Assembly: GCA_020854065.1 (NCBI GenBank)
Contig: JADZGF010000005.1
Span: 8,925-72,924, forward strand
Source: Candidatus Nomurabacteria bacterium
GTDB lineage: Bacteria; Patescibacteriota; Minisyncoccia; Phycocordibacterales; SBAW01
Reading direction: 5' to 3'
DNA length: 64,000 bases
The notes beneath the pieces were generated by a model that saw only the letters and a list, made by a program, of their open reading frames with translations, ran no database searches and was not told where the DNA came from. The translations under genes and the position numbers were made by a program. Shown one piece after another: positions 548-63,044 of this stretch (positions are counted from its first letter, which is position 1; the number at the start of each line of letters is the position of its first letter).

Positions 548-1654
548 ATGCTCCCGCATCGTGTGTTAACAGTTGCAACAATTCCGGAAGGAGGAAGTCT
601 TTGGGCAACCGGTGGATATGGTAATGGTGTTATCGGCAATAATACCAACAATAACTACTCCTCTCCAGTACAAGTGGGCACACTCGCTACTTGGTCGCAG
701 GTGTCGGCGGGGACTTTACACACCACCGCTGTTAAAACCGACGGTACGTTATGGGCGTGGGGAAATAACGGCGCAGGGCAGGTTGGCGACAACACTGTTA
801 TAACTCGCTCCTCACCAGTACAAGTAGGTACCCTCGCCGATTGGTCACAAGTCTCTGCTGGAGGTACTCATACTGCCGCGGTGAAGACCGATGGCACCTT
901 ATGGGCATGGGGTCAAGGCACGACTGGTGTTGTTGGCGACAATGATAACGTTAATCGTTCCTCTCCGGTTAAAGTGGGCACTCTTTCTACCTGGTCGCAG
1001 GTTTCCGCGGGAGGATCCCACACTGCAGCCGTTAGAACCAACGGCACTTTATGGGCGTGGGGGCAAGGAACCTTAGGTCGCATTGGCCAAAATAACACCA
1101 TCACTCGCTCATCGCCGGTGCAGATTGGTGCACTCACCACCTGGTCACAAGTGTCGGCAGGAGGAAGCCACACTGCCGCAGTTAAGACTGACGGTACTCT
1201 GTGGGTGTGGGGGTATGGCACGTTTGGTGCAGTAGGCGATAATACGAACACGATCCGCTCCTCTCCAGTGCAAGTAGGCACGCTCACCACATGGTTGCAG
1301 GTATCGGCGGGGAAATATCACACTGCCGCGGTGAAGACTGACGGCACCATTTGGGCATGGGGATATAACAGCGCAGGGCAGGTTGGCGACAACTCCACGA
1401 CCACTCGCTCATCGCCGGTGCAAGTAGGGACGCTCACTACTTGGTCACAAGTTTCTCTTCCTGTGGGGGCGAGTCACACTACCGCGATTAAGACCGACGG
1501 GACGCTTTGGGCATGGGGGCTTAATAGCTTTGGTTTTCTCGGTGACAATACTGCTGATAGCCGTTCCTCACCTGTACAAATTGGTTCACGTGTTTGGTCG
1601 AACGTTGCCGCGGGGGGTCTACATACGGTGGCTGTTGGAGGGTCAGTAGGTTAA
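548..1654 (+). CDS. RCC1 (regulator of chromosome condensation)-like beta-propeller repeat protein
   Basis: Seven tandem roughly 53 aa repeats of the form DGTLWAWG.N..GQ.GDN....RSSPVQVG.L..WSQVSAG..HTAAVKT, which is the classic RCC1 blade signature. Confidence 0.85.
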   Translation: MLPHRVLTVATIPEGGSLWATGGYGNGVIGNNTNNNYSSPVQVGTLATWSQVSAGTLHTTAVKTDGTLWAWGNNGAGQVGDNTVITRSSPVQVGTLADWSQVSAGGTHTAAVKTDGTLWAWGQGTTGVVGDNDNVNRSSPVKVGTLSTWSQVSAGGSHTAAVRTNGTLWAWGQGTLGRIGQNNTITRSSPVQIGALTTWSQVSAGGSHTAAVKTDGTLWVWGYGTFGAVGDNTNTIRSSPVQVGTLTTWLQVSAGKYHTAAVKTDGTIWAWGYNSAGQVGDNSTTTRSSPVQVGTLTTWSQVSLPVGASHTTAIKTDGTLWAWGLNSFGFLGDNTADSRSSPVQIGSRVWSNVAAGGLHTVAVGGSVG

Positions 1655-17024: not shown

Positions 17025-17909
17025 ATGGCTCTGAGCGATACGCAGGTTAATAGCCTTGAACTGCGCGCGCGCGACATCCGCGCCACTATTATTGAGATGC
17101 TCACCGCTGCAGGCTCCGGGCACACCGCGGGACCTCTCGGCATGGCGGATATCTTTGCGGCGCTCTATTTTCACATCCTCTCGCACGATCCCGCACATCC
17201 TGAATGGGATTTGCGCGATCGTCTTATCCTCTCCAATGGCCACATCACGCCGGTACGCTATGCTGCGATGGCACATGCAGGCTATTTCCCCGTTGAAGAG
17301 TGTTTAACGCTTCGTAAGTTTGGGTCGCGTCTGCAAGGTCACCCGGAGCGTCAAAAGCTCCCTGGGGTAGAGACTACTTCAGGTCCTCTCGGTTCGGGAC
17401 TCGGTCAGGCTGCCGGATATGCATATGCGGCTCGGATGGACGGAAAGAAATTCCGCACCTTTTGTTTAATGAGCGACGGGGAACAAGATACCGGCAACAT
17501 CTGGGAGTCTGCGATGTTTGCGGGGAATAATCGACTGAGCAACCTCACCGCTATTATTGATCGCAACAATATTCAGATAAACGGAATGACGGAGAATGTT
17601 ATGCCACTTGAGAACATGCGTGCAAAATACGAAGCGTTTAACTGGCATGTACTTGAGATTGATGGACATAACATGCGTGCCATTGTTGATGCGTGTGATG
17701 AAGCAGCGGCAATTTATGAGCGTCCAACCGTAATCATTGCACACACCATCCCTGGCAGAGGAGTACGTGAAATAGAGTTTGACTATCGCTGGCATGGCGT
17801 GCCGCCGGGCAAAGGTCCAACTGACAAAGTTCCGGCAGACAAACAGGCAGAAGTGTTCTTAAAAGAACTCCGGACTTTGAAAGGCAAAATTCAAAGCGAA
17901 CATGAATAG
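17025..17909 (+). CDS. tktA: transketolase, N-terminal (TPP-binding) subunit
   Basis: GSGHTAGPLGMADIFAALYF......LSNGH matches the transketolase PP-domain motifs. 294 aa, typical of split Tkt. Confidence 0.9.
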   Translation: MALSDTQVNSLELRARDIRATIIEMLTAAGSGHTAGPLGMADIFAALYFHILSHDPAHPEWDLRDRLILSNGHITPVRYAAMAHAGYFPVEECLTLRKFGSRLQGHPERQKLPGVETTSGPLGSGLGQAAGYAYAARMDGKKFRTFCLMSDGEQDTGNIWESAMFAGNNRLSNLTAIIDRNNIQINGMTENVMPLENMRAKYEAFNWHVLEIDGHNMRAIVDACDEAAAIYERPTVIIAHTIPGRGVREIEFDYRWHGVPPGKGPTDKVPADKQAEVFLKELRTLKGKIQSEHE

Positions 17910-17916
17910 CTTTTTT

Positions 17917-18468
17917 ATGCGCAAATCGCGAGGTTTTACCCTTATCGAACTCCTGGTTGTTATTGCCATCATCGGCATACTTGCCTCTATTGTGATGGTT
18001 AGTCTCAATGGTGCGCGTGCTAAAGGGCGAGATGCTCGGCGACTTGCTGACTTGAAGTCATTTGAATTTGCACTCAATCTCTACTATGAGGCGAACGAAC
18101 ACTATCCATATACCAACTGCTCTGGCTCTAACAGCTGGGCCAGTTTTGACAGTCCTACCTATTCGCCCAATTTGGTATGTGATACGCCAGGTGGAGCAGG
18201 AGTTACGCTTTCACAAAAGATGAGCCCATACACCGATCCCTTAAAAGACCCGGGAGGTGCAACTGGTGATGCGGGTTATTTGTATATCAACCAAGGAGGA
18301 CGATTCGATTATTGCGTCTTGGTATGGCGCACCCCTGAAAACCTCAACAATTTCCCGCCTGAGACGATACCCGCATCTCAGTGCACTGCATGGAATAGTT
18401 CCGGAGTGTGCACCAGTGGCACTAATGCGTTGTATATAGGGAAAGGTATCTATCAAAACGGCTGTTAA
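17917..18468 (+). CDS. type IV pilin / pseudopilin (prepilin with class III signal peptide)
   Basis: MRKSRG|FTLIELLVVIAIIGILASIV: a short basic leader ending in Gly, Phe at +1, Glu at +5. A C-terminal Cys pair (CTAWNSSGVCTSG...NGC) is consistent with a disulfide-bonded D-region. The start overlaps the tktA stop by a few nt. Confidence 0.8.
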   Translation: MRKSRGFTLIELLVVIAIIGILASIVMVSLNGARAKGRDARRLADLKSFEFALNLYYEANEHYPYTNCSGSNSWASFDSPTYSPNLVCDTPGGAGVTLSQKMSPYTDPLKDPGGATGDAGYLYINQGGRFDYCVLVWRTPENLNNFPPETIPASQCTAWNSSGVCTSGTNALYIGKGIYQNGC

Positions 18469-18478
18469 TCTTGTATAT

Positions 18479-19462
18479 ATGCTCCACGCTACTTTTTCAC
18501 AAGATGTATTTGAGAAGCCCGATATGTCCGCAACACGTGATGGGTTTGGCAAGGCACTCTTAGAGCTGGGTGAGTCTAATAAAGATGTAGTGGTGGTCTG
18601 TGCCGACTTGGCTGAGAGTACGCGCGTATTAGCGTTTAAAGAAAAGTATCCTGAGCGGTATGTCGAAGCGGGTGTTGCCGAGCAAAATATGGCGACCGTA
18701 GCAAGTGGTCTCGCAAATTACGGAAAAGTCCCTTTTATTACTTCATATGCTGCATTTTCACCCGGGAGAAATAATGAGCAGATCCGTACCACTATTTCAC
18801 TCAATTATGTGCCGGTTAAAATTGTTGGTGCGCACGCTGGTATTTCAGTAGGACCTGACGGCGCAACACACCAAGCGCTTGAAGATATGGCGCTGATGCG
18901 TGTGCAGCCTAATATGTTGGTGCTTTCTCCATGTGATAGCGAAGAGGCGCGTAAAGCGACACTTGCTGCAGCAACGCATCCAGGACCCGTGTATATCCGT
19001 CTGACACGAGAAAAGTCTCCGGTCATGACTGCAACGGAAACTCCCTTTACACTCGGTGCCGCAAACGTGGCGTGGGAGAGCGACCATGCGCCTGAAGTGG
19101 TGGTGTTTGCGACTGGGCCTCTGCTCTACCATGCACTCCTTGCTGCGAAAGAGTTGGAACATGCGGTAGCAACGATGGTGGTGAATGTGCACACAATCAA
19201 ACCGCTTGATAGGGCAGTTATCGATTTTGCAAAACAAGCCGGGGCCGTCGTTACGGTGGAAGAACATCAGGTGGCTGGAGGGTTAGGAAGTGCAGTTGCT
19301 GAACTTTTGGCACAAGAGCATCCCGTACCAATTGAGTTTATCGGTGTGAAAGACCAGTTTGGGCAGTCCGGCGAGCCGTCTGAATTGTATGAGCACTACG
19401 GCATGGCGCCGAAGCACATTGTGGAGGCAATTAAAAAAGCAGAGAGTCGCAAAGTGAAGTAA
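18479..19462 (+). CDS. tktB: transketolase, C-terminal (Pyr + C-terminal domain) subunit
   Basis: YVEAGVAEQNMATVASGLA...GPDGATHQALEDMALMR are pyrimidine-binding-domain motifs of transketolase. Confidence 0.9.
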   Translation: MLHATFSQDVFEKPDMSATRDGFGKALLELGESNKDVVVVCADLAESTRVLAFKEKYPERYVEAGVAEQNMATVASGLANYGKVPFITSYAAFSPGRNNEQIRTTISLNYVPVKIVGAHAGISVGPDGATHQALEDMALMRVQPNMLVLSPCDSEEARKATLAAATHPGPVYIRLTREKSPVMTATETPFTLGAANVAWESDHAPEVVVFATGPLLYHALLAAKELEHAVATMVVNVHTIKPLDRAVIDFAKQAGAVVTVEEHQVAGGLGSAVAELLAQEHPVPIEFIGVKDQFGQSGEPSELYEHYGMAPKHIVEAIKKAESRKVK

Positions 19463-29615: not shown

Positions 29616-30065
29616 ATGATTACGACGGAGCAAATAAAAGAACTTCGGGAGAAGACCGGTATTTCGATTGCTGAGTGCAAGAAGGCACTTGAGGCAACAG
29701 AAGGAGACATGGCAAAGGCTATGGATATTCTGCGCGAGCGTGCTGCTGCTGCAGTGGGTAAGAAGGCTGATCGTGACTTGGGTGCAGGCTCTGTTGCATC
29801 CTATGTACACGGCACTGCCCAGGTGGGTGCCATGGTTAAGTTGGCCTGCGAGACTGACTTCGTATCCAAGAATGAAGAGTTCGTAGCCCTTGCTCGCGAC
29901 ATTGCTATGCACGCCACTGCGATGAAGCCAACATCAATCGTTGAGCTTCTCGAGCAGCCGTTCATCAAGAACCCTGAGAGTATGATTAAAGACCTCATTT
30001 CTGCCGCTACGCAGAAGTTTGGCGAGCGTATTGAGGTCTCGGAACTCAGTGTTTTCTCCGTCTAA
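29616..30065 (+). CDS. tsf: elongation factor Ts (short form, 149 aa)
   Basis: ITTEQIKELREKTGISIAECKKALEATEGDMAKAMDILRE is the N-terminal UBA-like EF-Ts signature. Immediately downstream of rpsB (conserved rpsB-tsf pairing). Confidence 0.85.
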   Translation: MITTEQIKELREKTGISIAECKKALEATEGDMAKAMDILRERAAAAVGKKADRDLGAGSVASYVHGTAQVGAMVKLACETDFVSKNEEFVALARDIAMHATAMKPTSIVELLEQPFIKNPESMIKDLISAATQKFGERIEVSELSVFSV

Positions 30066-46824: not shown

Positions 46825-46837
46825 GCCCCCTCACCAG

Positions 46838-46871
46838 AGCCCCCGCCAACAGGTGGGGGTTCCTTATTTTA
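46838..46871 (+). terminator. putative rho-independent terminator
   Basis: CCCCGCC-AACAG-GTGGGGG hairpin followed by TTCCTTATTTT. Confidence 0.45.
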
Positions 46872-46895
46872 TAGAGATATGCTATATATAGAGCC

Positions 46896-47132
46896 ATGGT
46901 AGTCCGAATGAGACACACCCGGTCGCACACGGCTAATCGCCGTTCGCACCATGCCCTCAAGGCGCAAAAGCTCGCAACCTGCGAGTGTGGCGCTGCGCGC
47001 GTGTCTCACCGCGCTTGTGCGTCGTGCGGTCGCTACCGTGGACGTGTTGTAGTTGACCTTGCTGCAAAACAGCAGGCAAAGGCTGCAAAGCGTGCAAAGA
47101 AGGAGGGGAATAAGGCCGAGGCGCAGAAGTAA
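46896..47132 (+). CDS. rpmF: 50S ribosomal protein L32 (Zn-ribbon type)
   Basis: MVVRMRHTRSHTANRRSHHALKA (L32 N-terminal RRSH.AL signature) plus a C..C...C..C motif. Confidence 0.8.
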   Translation: MVVRMRHTRSHTANRRSHHALKAQKLATCECGAARVSHRACASCGRYRGRVVVDLAAKQQAKAAKRAKKEGNKAEAQK

Positions 47133-47180
47133 ATCTGCATTGGGCTTTGTTTCCGGTTCGCAGGTCGTTCTTTTACACAT

Positions 47181-48080
47181 ATGGCCAATAGGCATCTATC
47201 ACGCTCAGTAGTTCTCCAATCGCTCTTCGAGCGGGATGTGCGCCATTTGTCAGCCCCTGCAACCAAAGAAGCACTCGTGCGTATTGCCGGAGAGTTTGCT
47301 CCCGGTGGCTCTGACCTTTCTTTTATGGAAGGTTTGCTTGGTGGCATCATTGATCGAGAAAAAGATCTTGATCTCGTGATTGAAAAGGCTGCTCCGGAGT
47401 GGCCCATTGATCGGATTGCACCGGTTGATCGCAACGTGCTCCGTTTAGGTCTCTACGAACTTCTGTTTGCTGATCGTTCTGTGGTTCCGGCTAAGGTAGC
47501 AATCAACGAAGCGATTGAGCTTGCCAAGAGTTTTGGTGGCGATCATTCAGGTCGCTTTGTAAACGGTGTGTTGGGTGCAGTGTATAAAGAGCTGGGCGAA
47601 CCGGGTAAAGACGAGACGAGTAAGAAAAAGAAGGATGTTCCGTGGGAGGAGATGCCACAGGAGCGATTGGTGGGAGCGGTAGTCTATGCCCGCAACGGTG
47701 GTGAACTCTATCTCGCTCTGGTACACGATATCTTTGGCCATTGGACGCTCTCCAAGGGCAAGCTCGTTCCAGAGGAAACTCCCGAGGATGGCGTAGTCCG
47801 CAAGATTAAAGAGGAGATCGGACTTGATATTACGCCCATCGAACGTCTGGGAGAGAATGAGTATGTTGCCAGCGATCCCAAGGAGGGCAAAAAACGCAAA
47901 CATGTGATATTCTTCCTCGCCGAGAGTCCCTTTATGGAAGTGGCCTTGGCAAAGAAGGGTGGACTTGATGACGCCCGCTGGTTTAAGGTAAAAGACGCAA
48001 TTGACCTCAACTTTTATGAGGACATGCTTCCCATCGTTCAAAAAGGAGTCCAAAAACTCTCACAAACAATAAATACATAA
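47181..48080 (+). CDS. nusB: fusion protein: transcription antitermination factor NusB domain + NUDIX hydrolase domain
   Basis: The N-terminal roughly 140 aa carry NusB motifs (RNVLRLGLYELLF....VP.KVAINEAIELAKSFGG...GRFVNGVLG). The C-terminal roughly 150 aa carry a Nudix box GKLVPEETPEDGVVRKIKEEIGL (Gx5Ex7REUxEExGU). Confidence 0.7.
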   Translation: MANRHLSRSVVLQSLFERDVRHLSAPATKEALVRIAGEFAPGGSDLSFMEGLLGGIIDREKDLDLVIEKAAPEWPIDRIAPVDRNVLRLGLYELLFADRSVVPAKVAINEAIELAKSFGGDHSGRFVNGVLGAVYKELGEPGKDETSKKKKDVPWEEMPQERLVGAVVYARNGGELYLALVHDIFGHWTLSKGKLVPEETPEDGVVRKIKEEIGLDITPIERLGENEYVASDPKEGKKRKHVIFFLAESPFMEVALAKKGGLDDARWFKVKDAIDLNFYEDMLPIVQKGVQKLSQTINT

Positions 48081-48086
48081 AATACC

Positions 48087-48779
48087 GTGCCAAAAGATTT
48101 TTCTGCATTTGAGCGGGCAATAAATATTTCGTTTAACGAGGCTGAGCTTTTGTGTCAAGCGTTTACGCATCGCTCGTATCTCAACGAACACCGGGGCGAA
48201 GTACAAGGACACAACGAACGGTTGGAGTTTTTGGGGGATGCCGTACTTGAGTTGGTCATCACCCATTTTCTCTACAAACAGTTTCCTGAGAAGCCGGAAG
48301 GTGAACTAACGGCGTATCGCGCAGCATTGGTTAATGCCACGACGTGCGCAGAAGTTGCAAACGACATTGGTATGAACGAATATTTGCTCCTCTCTCGTGG
48401 TGAGGCGAAAGACACCGGTCGTGCACGCGGTGTACTTCTCGCGAATGCACTTGAAGCATTGGTTGGTGCAATCTATATCGATCAGGGCTACGAAGCTGCT
48501 GAACGTTTTATCAAAGAGCGTCTCGCTCCAAAACTCGACGATATTTTGAAGCAACGTTTGTGGCAGGATCCGAAGTCGGCTCTACAAGAGAAAGCACAAG
48601 AAGAGGAAGGAGTTACACCTTCATATGCCGTATTAAAGGAAGAGGGTCCAGACCACGACAAACAATTTACAGTTGGCGTCTATTTACGTGAAGAGCTTCT
48701 TGCGGAGGGTATTGGTCGCAGCAAGCAGGAGGCTGAGGCAGCGGCTGCAAAGGCAGCGCTCGGAGCGCGCGGGTGGTAA
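48087..48779 (+). CDS. rnc: ribonuclease III
   Basis: RNase III signature ERLEFLGDAVLELVI plus a C-terminal dsRBD. Conserved rnc-smc adjacency. Confidence 0.85.
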   Translation: MPKDFSAFERAINISFNEAELLCQAFTHRSYLNEHRGEVQGHNERLEFLGDAVLELVITHFLYKQFPEKPEGELTAYRAALVNATTCAEVANDIGMNEYLLLSRGEAKDTGRARGVLLANALEALVGAIYIDQGYEAAERFIKERLAPKLDDILKQRLWQDPKSALQEKAQEEEGVTPSYAVLKEEGPDHDKQFTVGVYLREELLAEGIGRSKQEAEAAAAKAALGARGW

Positions 48780-48788
48780 CATAGCAGC

Positions 48789-50918
48789 ATGCGTCTTCTT
48801 TCGATCGAGCTTTCAGGCTTTAAATCGTTTGCAAAAAAGACCACTCTCGAGTTTGGTTCTGCCATAACCTCGGTAGTGGGTCCCAATGGCTCCGGCAAAT
48901 CAAACGTTGCCGAGTCATTTCGTTTTGTCTTGGGCGAGCAGTCAATGAAATCAATGCGCGGCAAGCGCGGAGAGGACATGATTTGGAATGGTTCCGGATC
49001 TGTGCCACGCGCAGGTCGCGCGGGAGTGAAGCTTGTGTTTGATAACACTGACCGTGCACTGAATCTCGACTTTGATGAAGTAGCGATTGAGCGTGTTGTG
49101 CACCGGGACGGTAACAACGAATATCTCCTTAATGGTTCTCAGGTGCGTCTGCGCGACATTTCTGAGCTTCTTTCGCGTGCCAATATTGGCGCCTCGGGCC
49201 ACCATATTATTTCTCAGGGTGAAGCTGATCGTGCGCTTTCTGCTTCTTCACGAGAGCGCCGAGAAATGCTCGAAGATGCACTCGGCCTCACGACCTATTT
49301 GTATAAGCGCGAAGAGGCTGAGAAGAAACTGGAGAAGACTGCAGAGAACATGCGCGAGGTTGAATCTTTGCGTCGTGAACTCTCTCCGCATCTTAAGTTC
49401 TTAAACGCACAGGTTAAGAAGATTGAAGATGCACATGTGTTGCGCGAAGAACTCTTTGAGCGCTATACCGATTATCTTTCTCGCGAACATATTTATTTGC
49501 GTTTGGCACGTGCAGAACTTGGAGAGGGTAAAGAGCTTGAGGACGAACACACGACGCTCGATCACCGTATAACTCAGTTACGCAAAGAGCTTGAGAAGAA
49601 GCATGATGCAGGAAGTGATGAGTTGATGGCGCTTGAGCGTGAAGGTCGCGAGACTGCTCATGCACGTGAGGCCGCAGTTCGAGAATTAGGCGGTATTGAA
49701 GGCGAGCTACGCGCGCTTGAGCGCATGCAAGGTGATGGTCCTGCGCTTCCTGCGCGTGAAGCACGAGACTTTGCTGAATCCATCCTTAGCCTTGCGGAAG
49801 GTTCAAAGATTTCAGAACTTATTTCATTAGCCCGTTCTTTTATTCAAAAACTGTCCGTCTCGAGCGGTGTTCATTCACGTGCCGAGTTGCTTGAAAAGAA
49901 ACAAGTACTTGAGTCTCAATTGAAGGATCTTCAAGAAAAGGAAGAGCATGTTGCGGGGGAGGTGTCCGTGCTGCGCAAAAAGATAGAAGGGGAGAAGGAT
50001 GCGTCGCGCGAGGCTGAGCGTGAACTGTTTGCTGCAATGGCACGTCGCTCTGAATTGGAAGGTGCGCGTATGGCACTGCGTGCGCGTGAAGATGCGCTCA
50101 AGTTGGAAGAGGAGCGCTTTAAAGAAGAGTTGCGTGAAGCAGCAATCCTTCTTGAGCGAGTTCCCGACTATGAGCAAGAAACAATGTTTGAAGATGAGCC
50201 ACGCAGTGCGCAGGAAGAGCGTCGTCGCAAACTTGAGAGACAAAAGATCCGGCTTGAGGAGGCTGGGTTAGGAAACTCTGCTGAGATATTGAAAGAACAC
50301 CAAGAAACTACTGAGCGTGATCAGTTCCTTCTGCGAGAACTTGCAGATCTTGAGACAAGTGCACAATCGCTTCGCCTACTCATTGAGGACTTAACCGCAA
50401 CGCTTGAAGAGCGTTTTGTGGGAGGTGTTGAGAAGATTAATGCAGAGTTCGATGCGTTCTTTAAACTCATGTTTGGTGGGGGCTCAGCGTCACTGCAAGT
50501 GGTGAAAGAGACGAAGTTAAGACGCGGTGTGAGTGAAGAAGGAAGTGAGGATATGGATGTTGAGGAAGGTGTCGAAATTAGCGTTACGTTGCCGCATAAG
50601 CGTATCAAAGGACTCCATATGCTCTCGGGTGGTGAGCGTGCGCTTACTTCGATTGCGCTTATCTTTGCGATGAGTCAGGTCAACCCGCCTCCATTCCTTA
50701 TTCTCGATGAGACGGATGCAGCACTCGATGAAGCAAACTCTCGCCGCTATGGTGACATGATTGAAACGTTGGCGAAGAAGTCTCAGCTCATTTTGATCAC
50801 GCACAATCGTGAGACGATGTCTCGGGCAAGTGTCCTCTATGGTGTGACGATGGGATCTGATGGCGTTTCGAAGTTACTCTCCGTTAAGTTTGAAGAAGCG
50901 GTAGCGGTTGCAAAATAA
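48789..50918 (+). CDS. smc: SMC-like ATPase, short hingeless form (709 aa)
   Basis: N-terminal Walker A (GPNGSGKSN), a long coiled-coil, and a C-terminal ABC signature plus Walker B (LSGGERALTSIALIFAM....FLILDETDAALD). No hinge domain is recognisable. Confidence 0.65.
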   Translation: MRLLSIELSGFKSFAKKTTLEFGSAITSVVGPNGSGKSNVAESFRFVLGEQSMKSMRGKRGEDMIWNGSGSVPRAGRAGVKLVFDNTDRALNLDFDEVAIERVVHRDGNNEYLLNGSQVRLRDISELLSRANIGASGHHIISQGEADRALSASSRERREMLEDALGLTTYLYKREEAEKKLEKTAENMREVESLRRELSPHLKFLNAQVKKIEDAHVLREELFERYTDYLSREHIYLRLARAELGEGKELEDEHTTLDHRITQLRKELEKKHDAGSDELMALEREGRETAHAREAAVRELGGIEGELRALERMQGDGPALPAREARDFAESILSLAEGSKISELISLARSFIQKLSVSSGVHSRAELLEKKQVLESQLKDLQEKEEHVAGEVSVLRKKIEGEKDASREAERELFAAMARRSELEGARMALRAREDALKLEEERFKEELREAAILLERVPDYEQETMFEDEPRSAQEERRRKLERQKIRLEEAGLGNSAEILKEHQETTERDQFLLRELADLETSAQSLRLLIEDLTATLEERFVGGVEKINAEFDAFFKLMFGGGSASLQVVKETKLRRGVSEEGSEDMDVEEGVEISVTLPHKRIKGLHMLSGGERALTSIALIFAMSQVNPPPFLILDETDAALDEANSRRYGDMIETLAKKSQLILITHNRETMSRASVLYGVTMGSDGVSKLLSVKFEEAVAVAK

Positions 50919-53886: not shown

Positions 53887-54243
53887 ATGGCAGAAAGAGA
53901 TCAGGAATTTCTAGAGTTTGTTGTTAAAGGTTTGGTTGAACATCCGGAAGATGTAAAGATTGTACGTGTAGTGGATGAGATGGGAGTCCTTTTGACCCTC
54001 GATCTTAATGCCGAGGACATGGGTAAGGTTATCGGCCGCTCAGGTAATACTGCGAAGGCCATCCGCACTCTTCTTCGCGTCGTTGGCATGAAGCACAATG
54101 CGCGCGTTAACCTCAAAATTAACGAACCTGAAGGTGGTATGCGCGGAAGTGCAAACACCGGTTGGGACGGGACGCACGAAGCACCAGCTACTCTTCAAAT
54201 GAAGTCAGTCGATGAGGCCATGGAGGACCTCTCCAAGTTTTAA
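53887..54243 (+). CDS. KH-domain RNA-binding protein (KhpA/YlqC, UPF0109 family)
   Basis: VKGLVEHPEDVKI.....VLLTLDLNAEDMGKVIGRSGNTAKAIRTLL contains the KH GxxG loop (GRSG). Canonical position after rpsP. Confidence 0.7.
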   Translation: MAERDQEFLEFVVKGLVEHPEDVKIVRVVDEMGVLLTLDLNAEDMGKVIGRSGNTAKAIRTLLRVVGMKHNARVNLKINEPEGGMRGSANTGWDGTHEAPATLQMKSVDEAMEDLSKF

Positions 54244-54571: not shown

Positions 54572-55006
54572 ATGGAAAAGGGTCTTATTCGAATTTCAGT
54601 AATAGCAATTTGTCACGACGGCAAAGGTAAATATCTGTTGGGTAGACGATCAATGTCTTGTCGCGATGAGCAGGGGAAATGGGATCCAGTTGCAGGTGGT
54701 GGACTCAAATTTGGTGAGAGTATTGAGGATGCTGCTCGCCGAGAGATAAAAGAGGAAGGTTGTGCTGATGTTGAGGAACTTGAGTTCATGGGGTATCGAG
54801 ATGTTTTTCGTGAACAGGATGGCCAGCAAACACACTGGGTTGCTTTTGATTTCCGCGCTAAGATCGACCCTGCCCAGGCAAAAATAGGTGAGCCTCATAA
54901 ATGTGATGAGCAGCGCTGGGTCTCCATTGCTGAGTTAGAAGTAATGGACAACCTGCACTCTCAATTTCCAGCTTTCATCGAAAAATATCGTGAAAAATTA
55001 ATATGA
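54572..55006 (+). CDS. NUDIX hydrolase
   Basis: Nudix box GGGLKFGESIEDAARREIKEEGC. 144 aa. The stop overlaps the trmD start (ATGA). Confidence 0.7.
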   Translation: MEKGLIRISVIAICHDGKGKYLLGRRSMSCRDEQGKWDPVAGGGLKFGESIEDAARREIKEEGCADVEELEFMGYRDVFREQDGQQTHWVAFDFRAKIDPAQAKIGEPHKCDEQRWVSIAELEVMDNLHSQFPAFIEKYREKLI

Positions 55007-55650
55007 CATTTCATGTCGTCACCCTATTTCCTGAAGTTATTGAAAGCTACGCACAGGCGTCGATCGTAGGTCGTGCCCAAAAAGCAAAACTTCTGAAAGT
55101 AAAAACATATCAGTTGCGCGATACGGCAGGTAATAAATGGGGAAAAGTTGATGAGCGTCCCTATGGTGGGGGTCCCGGCATGGTGTTGCGCGCTGAGCCA
55201 GTTATCAAGGCGGTGCAGAAGATTGCGAAAGGCAAAAAGGTAAAAGTCATTATCACCTCTGCCGGGGGGAAACCCTTGACCAATGCATACGCCAAAGCGC
55301 TCACCAAACACAAAGATGTCGTTATTGTCTGCGGTCGCTACGAAGGAATCGATGCCCGGGCCAAGGCAGCATTGAAAGCCGAAGAAGTCTCCGTGGGTCC
55401 ATATATATTGACTGGAGGTGAACTTCCAGCCCTTTCTATCATCGATGCCACTGCACGACAGGTAAAAGGAGTGTTGGGGAAGTTCGAGAGTCTTGAAGAA
55501 GGTCGGGTTGCCTCCCACGACGTATACACCCGTCCCGAAGTACTCACTGTTAAAACAAAGTCATACCGCGTACCGAAGGTTCTGCTCTCTGGTCACCATG
55601 CCAAAAAGGATGAGTGGAAGGGGAAGCGCCGCAGCAATCCGGGTGCATAA
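55003..55650 (+). CDS. trmD: tRNA (guanine37-N1)-methyltransferase
   Basis: HVVTLFPE...GGGPGMV...CGRYEGID...ILTGGELPA are TrmD SPOUT motifs. Confidence 0.85.
   Translation: MTFHVVTLFPEVIESYAQASIVGRAQKAKLLKVKTYQLRDTAGNKWGKVDERPYGGGPGMVLRAEPVIKAVQKIAKGKKVKVIITSAGGKPLTNAYAKALTKHKDVVIVCGRYEGIDARAKAALKAEEVSVGPYILTGGELPALSIIDATARQVKGVLGKFESLEEGRVASHDVYTRPEVLTVKTKSYRVPKVLLSGHHAKKDEWKGKRRSNPGA

Positions 55651-56195: not shown

Positions 56196-63044
<6,849 letters not shown>

Follow-up and report, generated by a model that had tools for sequence, protein, structure and literature searches.

NusB, the partner of NusE (ribosomal protein S10) on boxA RNA, is among the most conserved single-domain transcription factors of bacteria, canonically 130-150 aa in length, and no version with an appended nucleotide-recognition domain was found described. 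The Nus factors help to loop boxA to RNA polymerase for the correct processing of pre-rRNA by RNase III, and nusB and the RNase III gene rnc interact genetically (PMC4807359). Here we describe a gene in which NusB continues, in one reading frame, into a C-terminal domain of the Nudix fold. It lies at 47181..48080 on the plus strand of a 64,000-nucleotide stretch of DNA (the window) from Candidatus Nomurabacteria bacterium (GenBank assembly GCA_020854065.1, contig JADZGF010000005.1, positions 8,925 to 72,924), and it is a genuine, lineage-wide gene of the Paceibacteria, which belong to the candidate phyla radiation (CPR). A full-text literature search found no description of a NusB-Nudix protein, in keeping with an earlier sequence-only reading of this DNA, which had proposed the fusion and regarded such a coupling as undescribed. 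The databases already hold the architecture, labelled as plain NusB, and it is a NusB with an NrtR-like degenerate Nudix domain, not a categorically new system.

In its working the fusion would resemble the NrtR regulators, in which catalysis is lost but the effector is still bound where the Nudix signature is unconserved, and members that keep the signature intact remain active (PMC2330246). In both, a degenerate Nudix domain is covalently joined to a nucleic-acid-binding transcription module, and in both a minority of members keep an intact box. The fusion is not an NrtR member, however: NrtR consists of an N-terminal Nudix domain resembling ADP-ribose pyrophosphatases and a C-terminal winged-helix DNA-binding domain, whereas the fusion has no winged helix and carries instead, in the reversed domain order, an N-terminal NusB as its predicted RNA- and NusE-binding partner and a Nudix domain resembling hydrolases of diadenosine tetraphosphate (Ap4A) and other diadenosine polyphosphates (ApnA). 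These asymmetrical hydrolases (Aquifex aq_158, Chlamydia CT771, the C. elegans enzyme, human NUDT2 and Thermus Ndx1) are the best structural and profile matches of the C-terminal domain and share with it the W-T-x-x-K-G strand, the phosphate-binding lysines and a base-stacking aromatic pair; the fused domain differs from them in having Lys at the position of NUDT2 E58, in the lack of conservation of its glutamate triad, in being joined to NusB and in scoring below the curated equivalog thresholds.

Three further systems combine comparable parts. Like the fusion, the 16S rRNA methyltransferase RsmB/Sun places a NusB-type helical RNA-binding domain N-terminal to an rRNA-related module, but the C-terminal module of the fusion is a Nudix fold and not an S-adenosylmethionine-dependent m5C methyltransferase, and its N-terminal half is an orthologous NusB rather than a NusB-like domain that has diverged. 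SuhB likewise ties an enzyme fold of the small-molecule-phosphatase type to NusB/NusE-boxA, rRNA maturation and RNase III; it is, however, a separate protein of the IMPase fold, neither Nudix nor fused, and any equivalence with the fusion is speculative. The mRNA-decapping enzyme Dcp2, whose Nudix domain recognises a 5'-5' polyphosphate-linked RNA end, also has an alpha-helical regulatory domain at its N-terminus followed by a Nudix domain, and the two Nudix halves are detectably related (profile E=2e-9), but Dcp2 is eukaryotic, retains an intact catalytic box and has an N-terminal domain unrelated to NusB, with whole-chain superpositions giving an rmsd of 10-15 A.

Architecture and predicted structure of the fusion

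The open reading frame (ORF) at 47181..48080 is unbroken in the ORF list and in the sequence, begins with ATG and encodes 299 aa, the stop codon being included in the coordinates. An NCBI protein 100% identical to its product is named 'transcription antitermination factor NusB [Candidatus Nomurabacteria bacterium]'. Its N-terminal part is an all-alpha NusB domain (aa 7-136, 47199..47588, plus strand), recognised by Pfam PF01029 with E=1.3e-30 and 107 bits against a cut-off of 23.1 and passing the NCBIfam nusB equivalog model TIGR01951 with 111.5 bits against 88.35. The motifs DRNVLRLGLYELLF, AINEAIELAKSFG and FVNGVLG are those of canonical NusB, and R4, R8, Q13, E93, F126, N128 and G129 are each conserved in at least 90% of the family alignment. 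A Lys-rich interdomain linker (aa 139-160, 47595..47660, plus strand), the length of which differs among members of that alignment, leads to the Nudix-fold domain (aa 163-283, 47667..48029, plus strand), matched by PF00293 with E=2.7e-15 and 57 bits against a cut-off of 21.1. The single-ORF fusion, and the assignment of its first ~140 aa to NusB, thus stand as the sequence-only reading had them. No NCBIfam Nudix equivalog model came near its cut-off for the fusion protein, the top one being MutT1 with 27.7 bits against 475.

An AlphaFold2 model built from a 55-sequence alignment (mean pLDDT 90.8, pTM 0.69) places seven helices across aa 4-138, mostly with pLDDT above 90, and a Nudix alpha/beta/alpha domain from about aa 160, in which residues 201-213 form the box helix; pLDDT falls below 50 only at aa 142-149, the part of the linker predicted to be disordered. 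When the two halves were compared separately with known structures using Foldseek, the NusB half matched Aquifex NusB in the NusB-NusE-RNA complex 3r2d (TM 0.87, rmsd 1.8 A) and M. tuberculosis NusB 1eyv (TM 0.85). The Nudix half was closest to the Aquifex Ap4A hydrolase 3i7u (TM 0.88), followed by mycobacterial MutT1/Rv2985, the Thermus Ap6A hydrolase Ndx1 and Chlamydia CT771, and further by the C. elegans and human Ap4A hydrolases, the NrtR Nudix domain 3gz8 and Dcp2. A family profile gave a concordant picture: its NusB part found T. maritima NusB (E=9e-38) and, in solved antitermination complexes, the NusB chains from E. coli (E=3e-29), and its Nudix part found 3i7u (E=2e-19), CT771 (1e-14), the C. 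elegans Ap4A hydrolase 1kt9 (3e-13), NUDT2 (2e-12), Ndx1 (1e-10) and Dcp2 (2e-9). The NusB half is predicted to bind NusE (S10) and boxA and to support antitermination and rRNA maturation; the conserved NusB residues named above and a boxA-like element upstream of the gene (see below) bear on this indirectly.

Distribution, gene order and orthology

A scan that used one genome per species found a relative of the fusion in at least 487 species-representative genomes of Paceibacteria, which answers the question of recurrence raised by the earlier reading. The best 80 of these relatives, found in Adler-, Kaiser-, Nomura-, Campbell- and Taylorbacteria and in other Paceibacteria, align colinearly from residue 1 to residue 293 or beyond, and the comparisons of loci given below cover these 80, or 81 genes when the window gene is added. 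An exhaustive representative search returned about 57 full-length fusions, with identity down to 32%. All of the best 120 protein matches, drawn from NCBI, JGI, ENA and Logan assemblies, are about 300 aa long and contain both Pfam domains, and the database names of the best matches are again plain 'transcription antitermination factor NusB' (Candidatus Nomurabacteria, Paceibacterota or Parcubacteria).

The idea that the fusion is an assembly or sequencing artefact, in which a frameshift or a lost stop joins two neighbouring genes, has practically no probability. We found no point in its support, and 81/81 species genomes, each assembled independently, have the same continuous ORF with a colinear ATG and free of internal stops; the continuous form recurs in thousands of proteins of the NCBI, JGI, ENA and Logan collections. 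Since the same intact fusion recurs across independently assembled genomes, a check of read support over the junction becomes superfluous. Split-gene forms were also considered and rejected: the seeming Nudix-only proteins P0230 and P0226 lie at the edges of their contigs, with starts 23-39 nt from the end and RNase III next in order, and are thus truncated pieces of fusion genes rather than genes of their own.

The gene order at the 80 loci, limited only by contig ends, is dnaE (on the minus strand), rnhB, rpmF, nusB-Nudix, rnc and smc. In the window, rpmF, encoding ribosomal protein L32, lies upstream at 46896..47132 (plus strand) and rnc, encoding RNase III, downstream at 48087..48779 (plus strand), both being supported by Pfam and by their conserved synteny. 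The rnc start lies 7 nt past the stop codon of the fusion. True unfused NusB proteins (P0216 and P0220, loci L083 and L084) are about 50% identical to the N-terminal half of the fusion, and their genes lie between L32 and a gene that opens with the RNase III signature, rnc directly following unfused nusB too. Because unfused relatives have a plain nusB in the same slot, the fusion gene is the positional orthologue of nusB, that is, the cell's own NusB, and across hundreds of Paceibacteria species no form of NusB other than the fusion is visible.

A different view would be that the protein is not a true NusB but resembles RsmB, with a NusB-like RNA-binding domain targeting a C-terminal module that acts on rRNA, and with a separate nusB elsewhere in the genome. 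RsmB is known to join a NusB-like N-terminal domain to an enzyme, and the fusion does have weak RsmB matches in NCBIfam. These matches, however, cover the NusB part only and reach at most 52.6 bits against cut-offs of 269-540 (52.6 against 319 in the direct comparison), outside RsmB/Sun membership, whereas TIGR01951 is passed. Moreover the fusion occupies the exact L32/RNase III slot of unfused nusB, and no second NusB was found among the genes of the 64-kb window. We consider this view very improbable.

A neighbour-joining tree of the NusB domains showed 52 fused and 10 unfused sequences interspersed; because it was built on a 140-aa domain and carries no support values, it is compatible both with one gain followed by several losses and with several gains. 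Some fusion-bearing records carry unexpected titles. At loci L046 and L073 the fusion lies in the standard Paceibacteria synteny in records titled 'Candidatus Azotimanducaceae bacterium' and 'Acidimicrobiales bacterium', and many further fusion-bearing genome records bear the title 'uncultured Candidatus Saccharibacteria'. Mislabelling or mis-binning of metagenome-assembled genomes is the probable cause, and these records give no evidence of the fusion outside Paceibacteria.

Erosion of the Nudix box and conservation of the nucleotide pocket

The box GKLVPEETPEDGVVRKIKEEIGL (aa 193-215, 47757..47825, plus strand), read directly from the sequence, has the layout G193-KLVPE-E199-TPEDGVV-R207-K208-I-K-E211-E212-I-G214-L215. 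Compared with GX5EX7REUXEEXGU and its three metal-binding glutamates it is not intact, since R-K replaces R-E, and it cannot be called the canonical Nudix box that the sequence-only reading took it for. In alignments the AAG codon at 47802..47804 (plus strand), encoding K208, falls in the slot that the metal-coordinating Glu occupies in 'RE': the segment is LRETQEEAG in wild-type NUDT2, LRATQEEAG in the E58A chains 4ick and 4ijx and VRKIKEEIG in the window protein. In NUDT2 this residue, E58, coordinates the metal, and E58A abolishes the removal of 5' phosphate from triphosphorylated RNA (PPP-RNA) (PMC8616924). The loss of catalytic glutamates, which the earlier reading had regarded as speaking against its proposal, is partial in the window protein, where E211 and E212 are kept, and widespread in the family.

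Among 52 diverse family representatives the whole triad is present in 10. The first position, E1 (208), is Glu in 12, Ile in 11, Lys in 10, Val in 9 and Ala in 7; Glu occupies E2 (211) in 27/52 and E3 (212) in 40/52, many members having Lys, Asn or Arg at one or other of these two positions, so that acidic residues account for 23%, 65% and 81% of E1, E2 and E3, respectively. Within the clade of the window gene (81 species) the commonest E1 residue is Glu (36 species), followed by Lys (19), Ala (12), Val (7) and Ser (4). By conservation the site ranks 113/132 in the Nudix domain of this clade, in 10/81 cases its residue is not that of the nearest neighbour, and a fully canonical REuxEE box is found in 36/81 species. 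The best 120 homologues of the fusion (74-100% identity) have RKEE in 82 cases and REEE in 36.

As a control we used the family of a stand-alone Nudix protein encoded in the window at 54572-55006, in which the Glu of its REIKEE box aligns with K208. Its 116 homologues (46-100% identity) have the three glutamates in 116, 114 and 116 sequences. Since the same organisms' stand-alone Nudix family retains its triad, sequence comparison indicates that the erosion of the box is specific to the fused domain.

The stand-alone gene (plus strand, 144 aa, REIKEE box intact) was correctly placed near rpsP-trmD by the sequence-only reading. It lies downstream of rpsP, between a KH-domain gene (53887-54243) and trmD (55003-55650), the start of which it overlaps by 4 nt, and it is probably the genuine housekeeping Nudix enzyme of the genome; its names in the sources vary between ADP-ribose pyrophosphatase and 8-oxo-dGTPase. 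A recent duplication was rejected as the origin of the fused domain: the two Nudix sequences are only 24% identical and are therefore not recent paralogues.

The residues that would form a nucleotide pocket behave differently from the triad. Aligned to NUDT2, K192 corresponds to K42, K240 to K89, Y228 to Y82 and Y279 to F128, of which we take K42 and K89 to be phosphate contacts and Y82 and F128 to be the aromatic pair that sandwiches the base (adenine contacts). In the 52 representatives K192 is basic in 100% and K240 in 90%, Y228 is aromatic in 94% and Y279 in 96%, and W188, T189 and W267 are conserved in at least 90% of the family. Over 23 gene pairs with dS <1.2 the Nudix part had a median dN/dS of 0.119 and the NusB part one of 0.167, indicating that the fused Nudix domain is under strong purifying selection and is not decaying. 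Taken at the level of alignments, the nucleotide pocket appears to be kept while the catalytic residues are not.

Possible functions of the fused module

We lean, with modest confidence, towards a Nudix module that serves on NusB as a non-catalytic or weakly catalytic binder of a nucleoside polyphosphate or of an RNA 5' end. The nusB of Paceibacteria would have gained a C-terminal Nudix-fold module from the branch of Ap4A/ApnA hydrolases and Dcp2, attached through a flexible linker of ~20 residues. The module would no longer be kept as a canonical hydrolase, its three box glutamates being free to drift (with the first being Lys here), and would bind a nucleoside-polyphosphate moiety with hydrolysis absent or slow. 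A candidate ligand is the nascent pre-rRNA leader, bound by its 5'-triphosphate or NpnN-capped end; an alternative candidate is a free dinucleoside polyphosphate or similar nucleotide. The signal of the ligand might then be passed to the NusB-NusE-boxA complex, by which pre-rRNA is looped for processing by RNase III. Where the REuxEE box is intact, the orthologues may still be active enzymes, as in the NrtR family.

We infer such a reader because strong constraint, a conserved pocket and a dispensable triad occur together, as has been described for the NrtR regulators. The closest characterised relatives of the domain are enzymes acting on 5'-5' polyphosphate-linked nucleotides, RNA caps and PPP-RNA, and the substrates of these relatives, the adjacency of rnc and the role of the Nus factors in RNase III processing make a pre-rRNA 5' end or a dinucleoside polyphosphate plausible as the ligand. 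In a more specific form, which we put forward tentatively and regard as unlikely, the module would be a catalytically silenced reader of caps or 5'-triphosphates that holds the 5' end of the pre-rRNA leader, or senses Ap4A-type alarmones, at NusB-NusE-boxA throughout a class of ultra-small bacteria, maybe substituting for bridging factors of the SuhB type; the gene itself may also be autoregulated through a boxA that overlaps its ribosome-binding region. If true, the transcription and looping of rRNA and its processing by RNase III would be tied to the chemistry of RNA 5' ends or to nucleotide stress.

The sequence-only reading had instead envisaged an active Nudix hydrolase that NusB brings to the transcription complex. 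In the form weighed here, the enzyme might remove 5' pyrophosphate or NAD/Np4A caps from nascent RNA or break down Ap4A or (p)ppGpp locally. We hold this to be possible but on the unlikely side. That the domain has its closest kin among active ApnA hydrolases, Dcp2 and the PPP-RNA-dephosphorylating NUDT2, that the pocket is intact, that R207, E211/E212, E199 and G193 are largely conserved in the clade of the window gene, and that 36/81 of its species have the full REuxEE box all favour activity; yet the window protein has Lys at a metal-coordinating Glu whose replacement by Ala inactivates NUDT2, E1 is among the most variable sites of the domain and flips between close relatives, the family has the triad in only 10/52 with Lys, Asn or Arg at E2/E3 in many, the genuine enzyme family of the same genomes retains all three glutamates, and no NCBIfam Nudix equivalog cut-off is approached. 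An active enzyme is more plausible for the REuxEE orthologues than for the window protein. Of the earlier proposal, hydrolysis as a property of the whole family does not hold up, whereas a nucleotide-recognising module on NusB is still a good idea, because the domain is strongly constrained and its ligand pocket conserved, and by its sequence the module appears more likely to be a reader or sensor than a hydrolase. A purely structural role for the Nudix fold, as a protein-protein adaptor with no nucleotide ligand that, in the manner of SuhB in the rRNA antitermination complex of E. coli, bridges NusB/NusE-boxA to RNA polymerase, NusA or NusG or recruits RNase III, would agree with the dispensable catalytic residues, the strong purifying selection and the position of the gene next to rnc, and an enzyme fold is already known to serve within the Nus complex in promoting the looping between boxA and RNA polymerase (PMC4807359). 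But a pure scaffold would not need pocket residues, and the most conserved residues of the Nudix domain (K192, K240, Y228, Y279 and W188) match phosphate- and base-binding positions of Ap4A hydrolases and do not lie on an obviously different surface, which makes the adaptor quite improbable.

Two points weigh against the nucleotide reader that we favour. The metal site is only partly dismantled in the clade of the window gene, where R207 and E212 are invariant, E211 is acidic in 96% and E199 in 90%, and G193 is largely conserved; because of this conservation, residual or unusual catalysis may occur. In addition, the assignment of the pocket comes from a sequence alignment at ~25% identity to NUDT2 together with the residues taken to contact ATP in NUDT2.

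If the module is indeed a reader, the fusion would be the first case of the Nus/boxA machinery directly taking a small-molecule or 5'-end input, and the second independent case, after NrtR, of a Nudix enzyme turned into the sensor of a transcription factor. The proposal is open to testing with recombinant protein although the organisms are uncultured. For annotation, metabolic reconstructions of CPR genomes should leave these proteins out of the tally of Nudix hydrolases.

A boxA-like element and the transcription context

A boxA-like element, GTTCTTTTACA, lies at 47167..47177 (plus strand), 4 nt upstream of the start codon of the fusion, with one mismatch to GYTCTTTAANA, a gamma-proteobacterial consensus. 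The consensus was taken from a study in which a boxA near the ribosome-binding site lets NusB/E repress the translation of a Nus-factor gene (PMC5725501). Matches with up to two mismatches were present upstream of nusB-Nudix in 20/80 orthologous loci, position-locked at -12 to -15, compared with 1-7% upstream of five neighbouring genes and 4% in shuffles; over the whole window boxA matches were at chance level (10 observed, 7.7 expected). NusB/NusE may therefore autoregulate nusB-Nudix through a boxA that blocks the ribosome-binding region, but we offer this tentatively, since the signal comes mainly from the nearest sub-clade and the consensus is one of gamma-proteobacteria.

No rRNA was found in the 64-kb window, and a scan for promoters and terminators around nusB-Nudix gave results at chance level, with the exception of one strong hairpin before rpmF. 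This terminator-like hairpin (46837-46872, plus strand) lies in the gap between rnhB and rpmF and has an 11-bp stem with 8 G-C pairs and a T-rich tail. It suggests that rpmF-nusB-Nudix-rnc-smc form a separate transcription unit, in a region where the count of terminators is that expected by chance.

Other genes in the window

A second fused transcription gene of this genome lies at 56196-63044 (plus strand), where a single ORF of 2,282 aa joins rpoB and rpoC, with the beta Rpb2 domains 1-7 (aa 20-1048) in frame with the beta' Rpb1 domains 1-5 (aa 1067-2162). Fusions of rpoB and rpoC are known in Helicobacter and Wolbachia.

Two proteins of housekeeping type are unusually short, namely an SMC-like protein of 709 aa with halves of the SMC_N head at both ends (48789-50918, plus strand) and an EF-Ts of 149 aa (29616-30065, plus strand), and both fit a genome reduction of the CPR type. 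Transketolase (17025-19462, plus strand) is split between two genes, one for its N-terminal part (17025-17909) and one for its C-terminal part (18479-19462), and between the two halves there is a small gene (17902-18468) whose product has a type IV pilin-like N-terminal methylation motif. Finally the gene at 548-1654 (plus strand), set among glycosyltransferase, sulfotransferase and methyltransferase genes, encodes a 368-aa protein consisting nearly entirely of seven RCC1 repeats, with a score of 275 bits for the RCC1-like domain.

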